From Escherichia phage vojen, in sequence record NC_049824.1: 50,709 nucleotides of DNA, one strand, 5' to 3'. The notes under the pieces were generated by a model that worked only from the letters and a program-made list of their open reading frames with translations, searched no databases and was not told the DNA's origin. Within the stretch, counting starts at the first letter, position 1. Each line of letters starts with the position of its first letter. Both the position numbers and the translations under genes were made by a program. Below, one piece after another: positions 2,498-17,762 of this stretch.

Positions 2498-2553
2498 GCC
2501 AGGTGCGAATCCTGGCATAATAGCCTCATCGAAACGAGATTGAGGAAAACAAA

Positions 2554-2739
2554 ATGGCACGTCGCATCACCAAAGACCTTAAAGTTCTGAACAAAGAAAA
2601 CGTAGTTAAAATCCTGGTTATCTGGGGATACAACGAAGAAGCAGCAAAGCAGAAGGTAGAAGCAGGTTATGAGCTGGCTGTAAAAGCAATGCCAAACGAC
2701 GACGCAAAAGGTATTGCAAACTATGTAGCTTTCTTTTAA
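2554..2739 (+). CDS. hypothetical protein (61 aa)
   Basis: ORF with GAGGAAAA RBS. Confidence 0.5.
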   Translation: MARRITKDLKVLNKENVVKILVIWGYNEEAAKQKVEAGYELAVKAMPNDDAKGIANYVAFF

Positions 2740-2754
2740 TTATCAGGTGAATAA

Positions 2755-2940
2755 ATGAAAACGAAATTAGTCCATAAATCAGAAATCAAGATCGGCGATA
2801 CTGTGATTCACAACGGTGAGCTTAGAACTGTTGGCAAAGAGTCAATAAGCCACGATGAATTTATGGGGATCTTGTTGTTCGGTGACTCTTATCGTCTTGG
2901 TTATAAAATGGTTGAGCTTGTGGAAGAGGTAAAATTCTAA
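2755..2940 (+). CDS. hypothetical protein (61 aa)
   Basis: ORF; its TAA stop abuts the next motif copy. Confidence 0.5.
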   Translation: MKTKLVHKSEIKIGDTVIHNGELRTVGKESISHDEFMGILLFGDSYRLGYKMVELVEEVKF

Positions 2941-2960
2941 ATAGCACTTTTTGTTAAAAC
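2941..2960 (+). promoter_or_regulatory. Conserved 20-bp element ATAGCACTTTTTGTTAAAAC
   Basis: Exact motif directly after the stop codon; AATAAT at an 18-bp gap. Confidence 0.55.
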
Positions 2961-3038
2961 TCAAAAACGATAACCAGGAATAATAAATCACATAGGGCGG
3001 CACGGCGTCGCCCGCAAAACCAATCAGGAGAAATCACC

Positions 3039-3971
3039 ATGTTAAAACTTGCTGACATTAAATTCCCGATCACCTTCGAATCTCGCGGCGTTGGTCATTT
3101 CATGTTTACCGACGAGAATACATGCACTAAGTTTAACGAATACGGAAGTCCAAACGCTTCAACAATGGAGATTGAACACTTCATTGAAGCGCACAATAAA
3201 CACTACAACTCACTTCGCGACTACGGCTATGCAATGCCAGGATACACCTGTTTTCACTACAAGCCATATAAAGGCCAGGTGTTACCAATGCGCGCACAGG
3301 ACATTGCGAGCGCTGCGACTTATGCGCGGGCAATTCACGCGCCAGAGAATGCAGAGCCACTAGTAAAAATGCACGCCTGCGACTACAAAAAATTGTGGTG
3401 CTTAAGCGTGGATAACATCAAGTATCCGATCGTATTCCGCACGGTTGGTAACTCAACGATTCGCTATACGTCACCAGACAACGGCGTTTATAGCGATGGT
3501 CAGAAATCAGAGTTGAAAGTTGATTTCTTTGTCAACGCTCATAACAAATTCAATCCACACAATGAAGAAGATAAGGTGTACTACGTGGAAGACATTACAA
3601 AACACTTGTTTGGAGAAACACCATTCGGCGGCGGAAAGACGTCAATTCAAGAAATCATTGGCGAGGAGATCCACAAGGCAGCCGTTGAAATGAAAGCGCC
3701 TGGAGGCTGGCGTATTGATAAGAGCGCCTTTGCCAATCAAGAAATCGTAACGCAGGGCGCCATTGAAGATATGCCAGTTGCCGCCACACTAAAAGGCGTT
3801 CAGCTTGATGATGGTATGTGGTTTGAAGTAACGGCAAAGCCAAAGACGATCGAGATTCATGATGATGTTGTTATTCTTCTGCTTCATTACGGTAGCGCAA
3901 AAAACCGTACCGTTGCGGGTGAGATTAGCATCAAGCGCGGAACGATGGTTAAGTGGAAGGTTAAGGTGTAA
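3039..3971 (+). CDS. hypothetical early protein (310 aa)
   Basis: Long ORF with AGGAGA RBS; no motif I can recognise. Confidence 0.65.
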   Translation: MLKLADIKFPITFESRGVGHFMFTDENTCTKFNEYGSPNASTMEIEHFIEAHNKHYNSLRDYGYAMPGYTCFHYKPYKGQVLPMRAQDIASAATYARAIHAPENAEPLVKMHACDYKKLWCLSVDNIKYPIVFRTVGNSTIRYTSPDNGVYSDGQKSELKVDFFVNAHNKFNPHNEEDKVYYVEDITKHLFGETPFGGGKTSIQEIIGEEIHKAAVEMKAPGGWRIDKSAFANQEIVTQGAIEDMPVAATLKGVQLDDGMWFEVTAKPKTIEIHDDVVILLLHYGSAKNRTVAGEISIKRGTMVKWKVKV

Positions 3972-13442: not shown

Positions 13443-14206
13443 TGAAAGTGAAAGGCGTTGTTAAACAATGGCGCTTTCCTGAAGCAAGCGAGCGGCAATT
13501 TAGCCGCTCAATTCAGGAGGCAATTAGAGATCTTGTTGTTCTCATGCGCAAGCGAACAAAAGCGATGAAGTTTGACGCAACAGATAATGAGATCAACAGC
13601 GCAGAAGATGAAATTAACAGCCTGGCAACTGACCTTATAGCTGGCATTGTTTCCACTCTTCCTGCAATCGCGTTGACCATTTATAAATTCAATGCGAAGC
13701 AGTTTATCAATGTTGCCAAGTCAACAGGCGGAAAGGATAACACGGCGGTAATTGTTTTGATCGCGATTGGCGCTAACGCTAACGAGGAGTGGTATCATAC
13801 GCTTTACGGTCAATGGCACGGCCTTACAGAATCATCGCTAAGGAAGCTATTCACAAATATTGTGTCTGACTGGTCAACAAACATTCGCAATGCAAACTTT
13901 CGCGGAAGCAATGATAAACAGGTTAATGATCTTGCAGAAAAGAGATTTGCTGTTTATAGCTCTTGGGGTAAAACGAGATCAGAAAACATTATCGGAGCGT
14001 GGAATAGTCGCCTGATGCGCCAGCGCCTTTATGATGCTAAGGTAACTCATTATTTCTGGCATGGGATGTTAGATGATAGAGAGCGATTGCAGCATGTATT
14101 ATGGGAAGGTAAAAGAATAGCGCTTGATGCAATTCATGATTTCCCTGGTGAGCCGTGGGGTTGCCGTTGCTGGGCGATTCCAGATTGGAATAATAAAGGA
14201 GAGTAA
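13442..14206 (+). CDS. head morphogenesis protein (Mu F / SPP1 gp7-like)
   Basis: Position after portal; C-terminal region with conserved Cys pair (GCRCW). Confidence 0.6.
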   Translation: MKVKGVVKQWRFPEASERQFSRSIQEAIRDLVVLMRKRTKAMKFDATDNEINSAEDEINSLATDLIAGIVSTLPAIALTIYKFNAKQFINVAKSTGGKDNTAVIVLIAIGANANEEWYHTLYGQWHGLTESSLRKLFTNIVSDWSTNIRNANFRGSNDKQVNDLAEKRFAVYSSWGKTRSENIIGAWNSRLMRQRLYDAKVTHYFWHGMLDDRERLQHVLWEGKRIALDAIHDFPGEPWGCRCWAIPDWNNKGE

Positions 14207-14209
14207 TTA

Positions 14210-15322
14210 ATGAAGGCAAAACAAAGATTTGATAGCGTCCAGGTTAAGGCGCATTTTGATGATAATGGATTTTTAGTGGATCGCCCAATTGTGGCGCGAA
14301 TTGGTTTGCAGGAGTACCGCACACCGTATGGAATCAGACGAGAGTTCCGACCAGCGTCAGAGGTATTTAAGGCTGATTCGCTTGCTACGTTCGCAGGCAA
14401 GCCGATCACTATCGGTCACGTCACGGTAACGCCAGACAATGCGGATCAGGTTGTTGTTGGTTCATGCGCTGGCGCTGGTGTTCCAAATGGTATTGGCGTT
14501 GAAGTTCCGTTAAGCATTTACTCAAAGCGAGCAATTGAGAGCGCAAAAAAGAAAGACACGGCGGAAATTTCAGTTGGTTACACATCGGTTGATATTGACA
14601 AGCCAGGCTGGGGTAATAATAAAACCGGAGATTACTTGTTTGAGGAAGACCTAAATGAAGACTGGAAGCCTGATTCTCCTGATTGGGTTAAATTTGACGC
14701 CATTCAGACGAATATCCGCGTTAATCACATTGCACTTGTCTTTCGTGGTCGTGCTGGCATTGCCAAATTAAATCTTGATAGTGAACAGGATTTTCCGTAT
14801 AGTGACGAGGTTCTAAATGACAAAGGAGATGAGGAAATGACAGTAAAAATTAAACTTGATGGCGCGGTAGAATTTGATGTTCCAAAGGCCGTTGCAGATC
14901 ACATCGAGGCGCTAAAGGCTGATGCAAAAGCTGCAACCGAAAAAGCTGATGGCCTTGAGGCCGAGCGCGACGCCCTGAAAACTAAAGTTGATGGCATTCC
15001 TGCGCAGATTGCAGAAGCTGTTAAGAAGGCAAAGACTGACGCAGAAGAACATGCCAAGCTGGTTGCAGATGCAACTGAAATTGGCATCAAGTGTGACGGC
15101 TTGGACGCTAAAGCGATCAAGGTTGCTTACGTCAAAGAAGTCACTGGCGCTGATATTTCAGAAAAAGCCGATGCATATATTGAAACAGCTTTTGACCTTG
15201 CGAAGCAGTCTGATAAAATGGCGGCGCAGCGTAAATCTGTTAAGGGCTATTCTTTCGGGTCTGGCAAGAGTGAAAAAACCGACTCCCTTGATCCGACTGC
15301 GCGTTTGAAAAAACTTAAATAA
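14210..15322 (+). CDS. putative prohead protease / scaffolding protein
   Basis: 370 aa; Ala/Lys/Glu-rich coiled-coil-like C-terminal half; sits between head-morphogenesis and capsid genes. Confidence 0.5.
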   Translation: MKAKQRFDSVQVKAHFDDNGFLVDRPIVARIGLQEYRTPYGIRREFRPASEVFKADSLATFAGKPITIGHVTVTPDNADQVVVGSCAGAGVPNGIGVEVPLSIYSKRAIESAKKKDTAEISVGYTSVDIDKPGWGNNKTGDYLFEEDLNEDWKPDSPDWVKFDAIQTNIRVNHIALVFRGRAGIAKLNLDSEQDFPYSDEVLNDKGDEEMTVKIKLDGAVEFDVPKAVADHIEALKADAKAATEKADGLEAERDALKTKVDGIPAQIAEAVKKAKTDAEEHAKLVADATEIGIKCDGLDAKAIKVAYVKEVTGADISEKADAYIETAFDLAKQSDKMAAQRKSVKGYSFGSGKSEKTDSLDPTARLKKLK

Positions 15323-15334
15323 GGAGAAATAAAC

Positions 15335-15847
15335 ATGGCTACAATTGGAGCAAGTTATTTTGCTGTAATGTCTCGTGCGTTACCTGGTCAGGTTTCTGAC
15401 ACTTCAGCTTATAATATTGATGGCGCTTGTGTTCTTGAGAATGCAGCAGGCAATCAGAATAAGCCTGTTTTTGTTGGTGTGGCTGTCCAGCATGGCGGCG
15501 TTGATGCTATGGGCAATAAGCTAATTAAGCCGATGGCGGCAAGCGGCAAGGCTTACGGCGTTGCAATTCGATCTCACTTCCAGACAACTTCGGCTGACGG
15601 TCGAATGATTTATGAATCTGGCGGCGGAATCAACGTAATGACTGAAGGGCGTGTTTGGATGTTGGCTAAAGACGCCGCCGCGCCAGCGTTCGGCACTACA
15701 ATCAAACTTTCTGAGGATGGTCAGGTTGATACCGGGTCTGGCACTATCGAAACAAACTGGATCGCGACTGGTGATTTCACCAAGTTTCAAGACTTGAAGC
15801 TGGTAGAGGTTCAGGTGCAAAAAGTTCCTGCAGTTTCAGCAGTTTAA
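15335..15847 (+). CDS. putative head decoration / structural protein (paralog 1)
   Basis: 170 aa; shares motifs with the next ORF (INVMTEGRVWMLAK vs VNVVSRGSVWCLTS); followed by a strong terminator. Confidence 0.45.
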   Translation: MATIGASYFAVMSRALPGQVSDTSAYNIDGACVLENAAGNQNKPVFVGVAVQHGGVDAMGNKLIKPMAASGKAYGVAIRSHFQTTSADGRMIYESGGGINVMTEGRVWMLAKDAAAPAFGTTIKLSEDGQVDTGSGTIETNWIATGDFTKFQDLKLVEVQVQKVPAVSAV

Positions 15848-15854
15848 TAAATAT

Positions 15855-15878
15855 GGCGCTCACTGAGCGCCTTTTTTA
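15855..15878 (+). terminator. Rho-independent terminator
   Basis: GGCGCTC-ACT-GAGCGCC hairpin followed by TTTTTTAT. Confidence 0.8.
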
Positions 15879-15893
15879 TATTTGGAGTTTCTC

Positions 15894-16328
15894 ATGAGTG
15901 ATTATTCAGTCATTGTTGGCGTTGAGTCGCCAGGGTGCATGGTCGATTCTTCAATAATGGTGATTAACGGATCTTTCGTGTGCGGAGATGAATTTATTGC
16001 GCCAGGTAAGATTGTGCGACTATCACATACAACAAATGGATACAAAATAGCCAGTATTAATGGGGGTCTTGTTATTGGCGTGGCAGTAAGGCCGCCGGAC
16101 TCGTGCATATATGAGGAGGGTGATCCAGTTAATGTGGTTAGTAGAGGTAGTGTGTGGTGCTTAACTTCTGAGAGCGAAGCGCCAGAATATGGAGATAAAG
16201 TATTTGTAACGCAAGATGGAGATGCGGCATACAGTGAAGGCGACTTGCTGATTGGTTGGATCTTTACTGGCGAACATGTAAAGGTTGATCATGATTCATA
16301 TATTGTCGGGGTAAGCATTAACGCATAA
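15894..16328 (+). CDS. putative structural protein (paralog 2)
   Basis: Start moved to ATG with GGAG RBS; paralogous to 15335..15847. Confidence 0.45.
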   Translation: MSDYSVIVGVESPGCMVDSSIMVINGSFVCGDEFIAPGKIVRLSHTTNGYKIASINGGLVIGVAVRPPDSCIYEEGDPVNVVSRGSVWCLTSESEAPEYGDKVFVTQDGDAAYSEGDLLIGWIFTGEHVKVDHDSYIVGVSINA

Positions 16329-16345
16329 CACAAAATTATGTTGCA

Positions 16346-16365
16346 CGTTTAACAAAAAATGCTAT
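16346..16365 (-). promoter_or_regulatory. Conserved element, inverted relative to the downstream plus-strand gene
   Basis: Plus strand reads TTTAACAAAAAATGCTAT; orientation is opposite to the canonical arrangement. Confidence 0.4.
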
Positions 16366-16411
16366 CATTGGGGCGTTACATACTAACAGCCTTTATATAT
16401 GGAGGAAGAAA

Positions 16412-17386
16412 ATGGAAAAAGAAAAATTTGATCAGCTAGATGCGGATATTGTTTCTAGCTATCTGGCTACTCGCGGCGTTAAAGGTGATGCGTCCGATAT
16501 GGGTATCTGGACGGCGCAAGAGCTTCACAAGATCCGCTCAACTGCTTACGAGAAAGAGTATCCGGCAGGTTCTGCGCTTCGTGTGTTCCCTGTAACTAAT
16601 GAGCTTTCTGATACTGATAAAACTTTTGAATACCAGATGTTTGATAAGGTTGGTTACGCAAAAATTATTGCTGATTACACCGACGACCTGCCGACCGTTG
16701 ACGCGCTGATGTCCAGCGAATTCGGTAAAGTGTTCCGCTTGGGTAACGCGTTCTTGATCTCAATTGACGAAATCAAGGCTGGTCAGCGCACTGGTAAGAG
16801 CCTTTCCACTCGCAAGGCAAACGCAGCGCAAAACGCTCATGATCAGGAAGTTAACCGCCTGGTGTTTAAGGGTTCAAAGCCGCATAAGATTCTTTCGGTG
16901 TTTGAACATCCTAACCTGACAAAGATCGTGTCTTCTGGCTGGTTAAGTGCTGATGAAAACACTAAGTTCCCGCAGTCAGCATCTGATGAACTGGAAAAGG
17001 CTATTGAAACCATTCAGACCATCACCAATGGTCAGCACCGCGCAACCAATATCCTGATTCCGCCGTCTATGCGCAAGGTTCTTTCCGTTCGAATGGAAAA
17101 CACCACTGAAAGTTATCTGGAATACTTCCAGAAACAAAACAGCGGAATCACCATCGACTCAATCGCAGAGCTTGAGGATATTGATGGCACTGGAACGAAA
17201 GGTTGTCTGGTATATGAGAAAGACCCAATGAATATGTCTATCGAAATTCCAGAAGCATTCAACATGCTTCCGGCGCAACCAAAAGATCTGCATTTCAAAG
17301 TTCCGTGCACTTCAAAATGTACTGGCCTGACGATTTACCGTCCGTTTACGCTAGTGCTTATTACTGGCTTGAAAAAATCAGGTTAA
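16412..17386 (+). CDS. major capsid protein
   Basis: 324-aa ORF with strong RBS, followed by a strong terminator; position in the head module. Confidence 0.65.
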   Translation: MEKEKFDQLDADIVSSYLATRGVKGDASDMGIWTAQELHKIRSTAYEKEYPAGSALRVFPVTNELSDTDKTFEYQMFDKVGYAKIIADYTDDLPTVDALMSSEFGKVFRLGNAFLISIDEIKAGQRTGKSLSTRKANAAQNAHDQEVNRLVFKGSKPHKILSVFEHPNLTKIVSSGWLSADENTKFPQSASDELEKAIETIQTITNGQHRATNILIPPSMRKVLSVRMENTTESYLEYFQKQNSGITIDSIAELEDIDGTGTKGCLVYEKDPMNMSIEIPEAFNMLPAQPKDLHFKVPCTSKCTGLTIYRPFTLVLITGLKKSG

Positions 17387-17398
17387 TCGTATAACATT

Positions 17399-17428
17399 GG
17401 GGAATCCTTAACTGGATTCCCTTTTTTA
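17399..17428 (+). terminator. Rho-independent terminator
   Basis: GGGGAATCC-TTAACT-GGATTCCC hairpin followed by TTTTTTATT. Confidence 0.85.
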
Positions 17429-17442
17429 TTGGAGGTTATGAA

Positions 17443-17715
17443 ATGGCTAAAGAAAAAACTGTAACGCTAAAGGTTTCCGGCGTATGCCTTATCATTGTTG
17501 ATGGTGAGCATTATCATCCAGGCAAAGAGTTTGACGTAGAAGAATCAAAGTTGAAAACAAGCGCGTTTGAATATCTAATTGCAAAAGGCGATCTGGAGGT
17601 TAAAGATAACTCCGCATTGAACGAAGAAATCAAACAGAGCGCAGCAAGCAAACGTAAAAAAGACCCGCGAGAGGGTAAGAGCAAGGCCGAACTCGAAGAC
17701 GGCGGCATCTATTAA
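17443..17715 (+). CDS. hypothetical structural protein (90 aa)
   Basis: ORF with GGAGG RBS downstream of the capsid gene. Confidence 0.5.
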   Translation: MAKEKTVTLKVSGVCLIIVDGEHYHPGKEFDVEESKLKTSAFEYLIAKGDLEVKDNSALNEEIKQSAASKRKKDPREGKSKAELEDGGIY

Positions 17716-17762
17716 TAAAGAGGGCGCTATAAGCGCCCTTTGTCATATCTGGAGGAAATAAA

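Follow-up and report, generated by a model that had tools for sequence, protein, structure and literature searches.

A probable two-component cement system in the head of the T1-like Escherichia phage vojen, with a second subunit reduced to its cement domain

Two adjacent genes in the head module of Escherichia phage vojen (sequence record NC_049824.1; all 50,709 nucleotides of it were analysed and are referred to as the window) most probably supply a T1-like siphophage head with its two cement (decoration) proteins. The first, ORF1 (170 aa, 15335..15847, + strand), is to judge by its sequence the ortholog of phage T1 gp49 and would be the majority subunit that builds the trimers. The second, ORF2 (144 aa, 15894..16328, + strand), is homologous to the cement domain that makes up the N-terminal part of T1 gp48 and of gp29 of the T1-like phage FCWL1. 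We put the probability of this reading as a whole, in which T1-like cement trimers are combined with read-through expression of the second gene, at roughly 0.8. Structures of a two-component cement system have already been solved for T1 and FCWL1 (2025), and current understanding is not overturned by our finding; what the window contributes is a second subunit that consists of a bare cement domain.

The window was assigned to Hanrivervirus (Drexlerviridae, subfamily Tempevirinae) and represents a T1-like siphophage, the region 14000-17500 being 98.1% identical to Salmonella phage slyngel and 96–98% identical to many E. coli phages. The head module is ordered large terminase, portal, Mu-F-like head morphogenesis protein, DUF2213 protease, ORF1, ORF2 and major capsid protein (MCP), followed by a DUF7444 protein and then connector genes. 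Directly upstream of ORF1 lies the gene for a prohead maturation protease (14210..15322, + strand; Pfam DUF2213, E = 5e-27; phrog_530 head maturation protease, E = 1e-110), whose C-terminal part is a coiled coil resembling a scaffold; the counterpart of this gene is labelled prohead protease in the KarlJaspers and phiE31-2 records. The MCP gene (16412..17386, + strand) encodes an HK97-type protein of 324 aa (Pfam Major_capside, E = 1.4e-53; phrog_264 major head protein, E = 3e-99). A preliminary description of this DNA had placed the pair, with correct coordinates (15335-16328), between scaffold and capsid genes; the capsid side stands, while the upstream gene is better described as that of a prohead protease, perhaps ending in a scaffold-like tail, than as a simple scaffold gene. 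ORF1 begins with ATG downstream of the ribosome-binding site AAGGAG. For ORF2 a mechanical ORF call chose the TTG at 15882 (148 aa), but annotated relatives use the ATG at 15894 (144 aa), which has a GGAG ribosome-binding site 7 nt upstream. The spacing from the ORF1 stop codon to the ORF2 start codon is 52 nt, and 83 non-coding bases separate the ORF2 stop from the MCP start. Rfam and tRNA scans of the whole window gave no matches.

Two observations concern the neighbouring genes. Residues 27–33 of the window MCP are ASDMGIW, which is the N-terminus of the mature TLS major capsid protein as determined by Edman degradation (PMC11447400); this suggests that the window MCP has a short N-terminal propeptide that is cleaved after Asp26. 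Directly 3' of the MCP gene is the gene for a DUF7444 / phrog_2716 protein of 90 aa (17443-17715), flanked on both sides by terminator-like hairpins, of which the first, with a T-run (17399..17427, + strand), has annotated equivalents in G29-2, Stevie and T1 and the second lies at 17721-17739. The DUF7444 gene occupies the same position in every Drexlerviridae locus examined, although the phiE31-2 record misnames its product 'major capsid protein', and it may encode another small head-associated protein.

ORF1 and ORF2 align by BLASTP with 51 bits and 31% identity across 93 residues, and the associated E-value of 1e-13 places their similarity far beyond chance. Both match the Pfam families PF22758 Phage_cement (91 bits for ORF1, 58.1 bits for ORF2) and PF23982 XM1_gp53_minor_capsid (65.5 and 96.4 bits, respectively), for which the curated gathering cutoffs are 27 bits, and both belong to phrog_1989. 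The preliminary description had noticed a shared order of motifs in the two products, attributed it to duplication and divergence, and named a pairwise alignment as the check. The motifs it quoted (INVMTEGRVWMLAK in ORF1 with VNVVSRGSVWCLTS in ORF2, and IKLSEDGQVD with VFVTQDGDAA) are present and fall in register in that alignment, which together with the common Pfam and PHROG families bears out its proposal. One further comparison of the two copies was rejected as an argument: support for heterotrimers had been sought in a greater likeness of the paralogs over their C-terminal half, which trimerises, than over their N-terminal half, which binds the capsid, and this was dropped because the difference is weak in the window pair (32% identity in the C-terminal half, 22% in the N-terminal) and reversed in T1 (36% and 50%).

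Comparison with solved structures places both products among the cement proteins. Against PDB sequences, residues 1-162 of ORF1 match the 158-aa 'decoration protein / cement protein II' of entries 9KMG, 9KMH and 9KZJ with E = 1.6e-46, and ORF1 also matches the 255-aa 'decoration protein gp29 / BIG2 domain-containing protein' with E of about 1e-18; ORF2 matches FCWL1/T1 cement chains with E = 3.9e-11, 3.4e-9 and 4e-9. Entry 9KZJ is the T1 capsid, and 9KMG and 9KMH come from FCWL1, whose decoration-protein structures were reportedly described by Cai et al. in 2025 (Structure 33:663). In a comparison with the translated T1 record, ORF1 shares 53% identity with gp49 along its entire length; for ORF2, identity is 34% with the N-terminal domain of gp48 and about 28–33% with either T1 protein. 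An AF2 model of a single ORF2 chain, built from a 59-sequence alignment obtained by profile search, reached pLDDT 83 and pTM 0.79 (a run on a shallow alignment of 14 sequences gave pLDDT 50 and was discarded). The best Foldseek matches of this model in the PDB are FCWL1/T1 cement chains (TM 0.74–0.78, probability 1.0), with the lowest RMSD, 2.5 Å at TM 0.78, to the gp48-type chains 9kmh_ak and 9kzj_H. Next come the cement proteins of XM1, Pam3, Borrelia BB1 and HFTV1 (TM 0.58–0.64 for XM1, Pam3 and BB1), with phi29 gp8.5, Sf11 and TW1 lower in the list. The beta-rich, beta-tulip-like cement fold is thus assigned to ORF2 by its AF2 model and to ORF1 through its identity to the solved T1 gp49, and both genes lie in the head module beside the MCP gene, as expected of cement genes. 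The idea in the preliminary description that the products could be decoration or cement proteins therefore gains support from the matches of both to T1/FCWL1 cement chains and from the superposition of the ORF2 model on them.

The role of the pair can be framed by analogy with T1, in which cryo-EM resolved a T=7 head with 415 copies of MCP gp47 and with trimers on the icosahedral three-fold and quasi-three-fold axes: 80 consist of gp49 alone and 60 combine one gp48 with two gp49 (PMC11945409). Both decoration proteins have the beta-tulip fold; the N-terminus of gp49 is embedded in the shell while gp48 is attached at the outer surface only, and gp48 residues 154-255 form a flexible C-terminal domain that protrudes and is a proposed adsorption aid (PMC11945409). 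The virion totals are 360 gp49 and 60 gp48. A figure legend gives the heterotrimers as 2/6 of the trimers around a hexon (PMC11945409), and since there are 60 such sites we infer that they are penton-adjacent. The earlier suggestion of a capsid-associated pair with distinct roles agrees well with this division between homotrimers and 1 gp48 : 2 gp49 heterotrimers.

Transferred to the window, the T1 arrangement would have ORF1 trimers clamp the three-fold and quasi-three-fold capsomer junctions of a T=7 shell after capsid expansion, with the MCP as their binding platform and the ORF1 N-terminal arm extending into the shell. One ORF2 would take the place of an ORF1 subunit at the minority of sites, giving 1:2 heterotrimers; both this state and the presence of ORF2 in the virion are extrapolated from proteins about 33% identical to it. 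Since ORF2 has no adhesin-like Ig domain, it would act purely as a site-specific structural adapter. Our literature search found neither virion proteomics nor a structure for any Ig-less second paralog, and no usable virion proteomics for Hanrivervirus or Tempevirinae; the TLS paper assigned an 18.5-kDa SDS-PAGE band to the first paralog, tentatively.

It is conceivable, though unlikely, that ORF2 is a virion cement protein that sits elsewhere, for example at five portal-vertex sites only or in homotrimers of its own, and does not enter penton-adjacent 1:2 heterotrimers. The gp48-type chain of FCWL1 is found in the PDB table only in the portal-vertex composite, with 5 chains, and at about 28–33% identity to either T1 protein the partner or site specificity of ORF2 could have shifted. 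However, the icosahedral reconstruction of T1 has one gp48 per asymmetric unit, and has it in heterotrimers (9kzj_H), which favours the T1-like placement. The two structural studies deserve a comment of their own: because the 255-aa gp29 chains are listed only in 9KMH, whereas the T1 entry 9KZJ contains one gp48 chain per icosahedral asymmetric unit, site occupancy of the second cement protein may differ between studies of near-identical phages.

The non-coding DNA around ORF2 bears on how much of it is made. Between the two genes is a Rho-independent terminator (15855..15877, + strand; GGCGCTC-ACT-GAGCGCC then TTTTTT), with a 7-bp stem at 15855-15871 that includes 6 GC pairs; the 46-nt segment 15840-15885, terminator included, folds at -14.8 kcal/mol (z = -4.1 against dinucleotide shuffles). 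A terminator after cement gene I is annotated in the G29-2, Stevie and T1 records, and when intergenic regions were compared across eleven loci from seven Drexlerviridae lineages, a GC-rich hairpin and T-run were found 3' of cement gene I in every one. The stem sequences vary between lineages (GGCGCTC, GGGGACTATC, GGCACTCT, GGCCGGA, GGCTCC) while the hairpin is kept, which argues for selection on its structure. Every locus compared also has, between cement gene II and the MCP gene, a near-invariant TTGCAC/TTGACG-N16-TGcTATCAT, represented in the window by the promoter-like motif TTGCAC-N16-(TGc)TATCAT (16341..16368, + strand). This putative promoter, recognised by reading the sequence, combines an extended -10 with a weak -35 (3/6), and a stricter scan for consensus sigma-70 promoters gave no hit here; the T1 record has an annotated promoter at the corresponding position. 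In its re-annotated GenBank form that record runs decoration protein, terminator, IgG-domain decoration protein, promoter, terminator, MCP. In phages with a single cement gene, the terminator (annotated in Sin4) and a promoter-like sequence found by eye lie together between the cement and MCP genes.

Because ORF2 sits between the terminator after ORF1 and the promoter-like motif, it would lie in a transcriptional shadow and be made only from terminator read-through, the promoter-like element then restarting transcription for the capsid gene; a subunit ratio of about 6:1 could in this way be set largely by transcription. The conserved terminator and motif fit low expression of the second paralog, and read-through expression of ORF2 would in turn fit the minority status of the second subunit in T1 (360 gp49, 60 gp48). 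The terminator after the first gene had already been recognised in the preliminary description and is real, but it informs less on high expression of that gene, the reading given there, than on a drop in transcription towards the second.

A second hairpin lies directly 3' of the promoter-like motif and just upstream of the MCP ribosome-binding site (window 16341-16392 for motif and hairpin). It is terminator-like with a T-run in T1, tunus and K50 and weak in the window (-6.8 kcal/mol, z = -1.0). A promoter followed immediately by a terminator-like hairpin is an odd arrangement, and the hairpin could be a 5' stabilising stem-loop or an attenuator.

What sets ORF2 apart is the Ig-like domain that it lacks and its T1 counterpart has, a difference overlooked in the preliminary description. 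ORF2 has no Big_2 Pfam match, no linker and no residues past the cement domain, whereas its closest Ig-bearing relatives are 239-269 aa long. Second genes of 255-269 aa with an Ig domain are found in Tunavirus (T1, SH2), Warwickvirus (tunus), Changchunvirus (PaulSarasin) and the K50-like Klebsiella phage, and of 239 aa in the Henuseptimavirus-like sequences P0023, P0034 and P0036. Those of Hanrivervirus, P0022 and Tlsvirus Stevie (146 aa) are 143-146 aa long and have no Ig domain, and in the second paralog of P0043 the domain is truncated. Braunvirinae (ACG-M12) and Webervirus (Sin4) have a single cement gene only; the order protease, cement I, cement II, MCP is kept in Tunavirus, Warwickvirus, Changchunvirus, Henuseptimavirus, Tlsvirus, the K50-like Klebsiella phage and Hanrivervirus.

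A bootstrapped neighbour-joining tree built from the cement domains pairs the Ig-less Hanrivervirus/P0022 proteins with the Ig-bearing Henuseptimavirus clade as sister groups (93%) and nests both within a 100%-supported clade of Ig-bearing proteins, outside which the Ig-less Stevie protein falls. This topology indicates that the Ig domain has been lost at least twice in the family. The same tree gives a bootstrap of 60 on the question of whether T1 gp48 and the second paralogs of Tempevirinae go back to one duplication; that they have the Ig domain and the synteny in common favours a single origin. In T1, the N-domain of gp48 is 43% identical to gp49 (50% in the N-terminal half) and 26–34% identical to the Tempevirinae second paralogs, even though the Ig domains of gp48 and of those paralogs are clear homologs. 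This points to gene conversion acting between the two neighbouring copies in Tunavirus, or to evolution at very unequal rates. Another irregular case is Escherichia phage IsaakIselin (MZ501077.1, locus 2501-3300), in which the second paralog is broken in two, into a 165-aa ORF with the end '...APFDES*' and, continuing in another frame, an Ig domain that looks intact (QPNNKPFTLKVNVYPDYATDKTG...); an annotated ORF of 71 aa is a spurious overlap, and unbroken counterparts of 239 aa are those of P0023, P0034 and P0036. The split may be a frameshift mutation or a sequencing error, or conceivably reflects programmed frameshifting.

Such variation raises the possibility that ORF2 is a decaying remnant, functionless since the loss of its Ig-like domain and absent from virions. 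The second-paralog locus is evolutionarily labile, since the Ig domain is absent in ORF2, frameshifted in the IsaakIselin record and truncated in P0043, and ORF2 is moreover preceded by a terminator. We nevertheless consider decay very improbable. The 144-aa ORF is intact in all of the Hanrivervirus genomes examined (6/6), with dN/dS of 0.10–0.19 for pairs with dS of 0.25–0.6; for comparison, values in the same genomes are 0.02–0.11 for the MCP and 0.06–0.56 for ORF1, where 14 of the 15 pairs are at or below 0.35 and the value of 0.56 belongs to the least divergent pair, with just 14 substitutions. Ten family-invariant residues are retained in ORF2 (P13, G14, D18, G62, Y73, G85, W88, G109, W122, G126), the protein is confidently predicted to adopt the cement fold, and an independent Ig-less lineage, Tlsvirus Stevie (146 aa), also retains the gene. 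Because ORF2 is always intact, has low dN/dS and keeps the invariant residues, the gene is on this comparative evidence under purifying selection and not decaying. Least probable of all is a non-structural role for ORF2 in assembly, as a chaperone or placeholder bound transiently at procapsid three-fold sites until displaced by ORF1: its low inferred expression and its N-terminus, which lacks the ORF1-type arm, is 4 residues shorter, divergent and of low pLDDT, would suit such a role, but the T1 and FCWL1 homologs are modelled in mature virions and our data show no sign of a transient role.

Purifying selection together with recurrent loss of the Ig domain appears consistent with a structural role for the cement domain, to which Ig is a dispensable add-on. 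We therefore advance, as a tentative proposal that may well prove wrong, that the conserved job of the gp48-type subunit is to adapt cement trimers to penton- or portal-adjacent quasi-three-fold sites rather than to provide Ig-mediated adhesion, that the Ig domain is optional and has been shed at least twice (in the Hanrivervirus lineage and in Tlsvirus), and that stoichiometry is hard-wired by the gap between terminator and promoter. The Ig-less variant offers a natural control with which the structural role of the second subunit can be separated from the adhesion role proposed for the Ig domain, and ORF2 is a potential site for phage display or engineering whose copy number would be low and defined. 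Cement proteins are obvious contributors to the environmental stability for which T1-like phages are notorious.

The identification also enables correct annotation of two genes whose products are named 'hypothetical protein', 'putative zonula occludens toxin', 'scaffolding protein' or 'major capsid protein' in most Hanrivervirus records. The label 'putative zonula occludens toxin' is attached to the ORF1 homolog in slyngel, egaa, herni, grams, aaroes and haarsle, and in many GenBank/RefSeq records, with record notes that point to Salmonella phage 36. Other ORF1 homologs are called 'HtjA' or 'major capsid protein', ORF2 homologs are called 'scaffolding protein', and the Ig-less ORF2 homolog of phiE31-2 is labelled 'BIG2 domain-containing protein'. 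These varied labels are propagated misannotations. A different problem affects MG065680.1 and about 19 further records titled 'UNVERIFIED: Campylobacter phage A113/A118/A119/A121/A131' with C. jejuni as host, which are Hanrivervirus genomes with cement proteins 86–96% identical to those of E. coli phages; most likely the host label is wrong, or the sequences derive from T1-like contaminants.

Among known systems, the closest to the window is that of T1, a member of the same family with the same order of protease, cement I, terminator, cement II, promoter and MCP. As in T1, two neighbouring paralogous cement genes lie between protease and MCP with the majority subunit first, and a terminator between them and a candidate promoter before the MCP gene are read in the sequence; as in both T1 and FCWL1, the N-terminal arm is longer and conserved in the first paralog and shorter and divergent in the second. 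The difference lies in the second subunit: T1 gp48 and FCWL1 gp29 are proteins of 255 aa with a proline-rich linker and a protruding C-terminal Big2/Ig-like domain, whereas ORF2, at 144 aa, has the cement domain only and belongs with the Tempevirinae second paralogs (motif MSDYS..PGC.VDS), which form a clade separate from T1 gp48. XM1 gp53 (7KMX), gp6 of the cyanophage Pam3 (8HDT), gp24 of the Pseudomonas phage E217 and the cement proteins of Sin4 and ACG-M12 share the fold, the Pfam families and a gene position directly upstream of the MCP gene, but each of these phages has one cement protein that forms homotrimers only, in contrast to the two diverged copies of the window; in the Vibrio myophage XM1, trimers of the single gp53, after which PF23982 is named, occupy three-fold and quasi-three-fold axes. 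More distant are Lambda gpD and TW1 gp56, single-gene homotrimers with a beta-tulip fold that clamp the three-fold sites of T=7 HK97-fold capsids, and to which the authors of the T1 and XM1 studies considered their own folds analogous. ORF1 and ORF2 have no detectable sequence similarity to either protein, and between TW1 and the ORF2 model the structural match is weak (Foldseek E = 0.27, TM 0.62).
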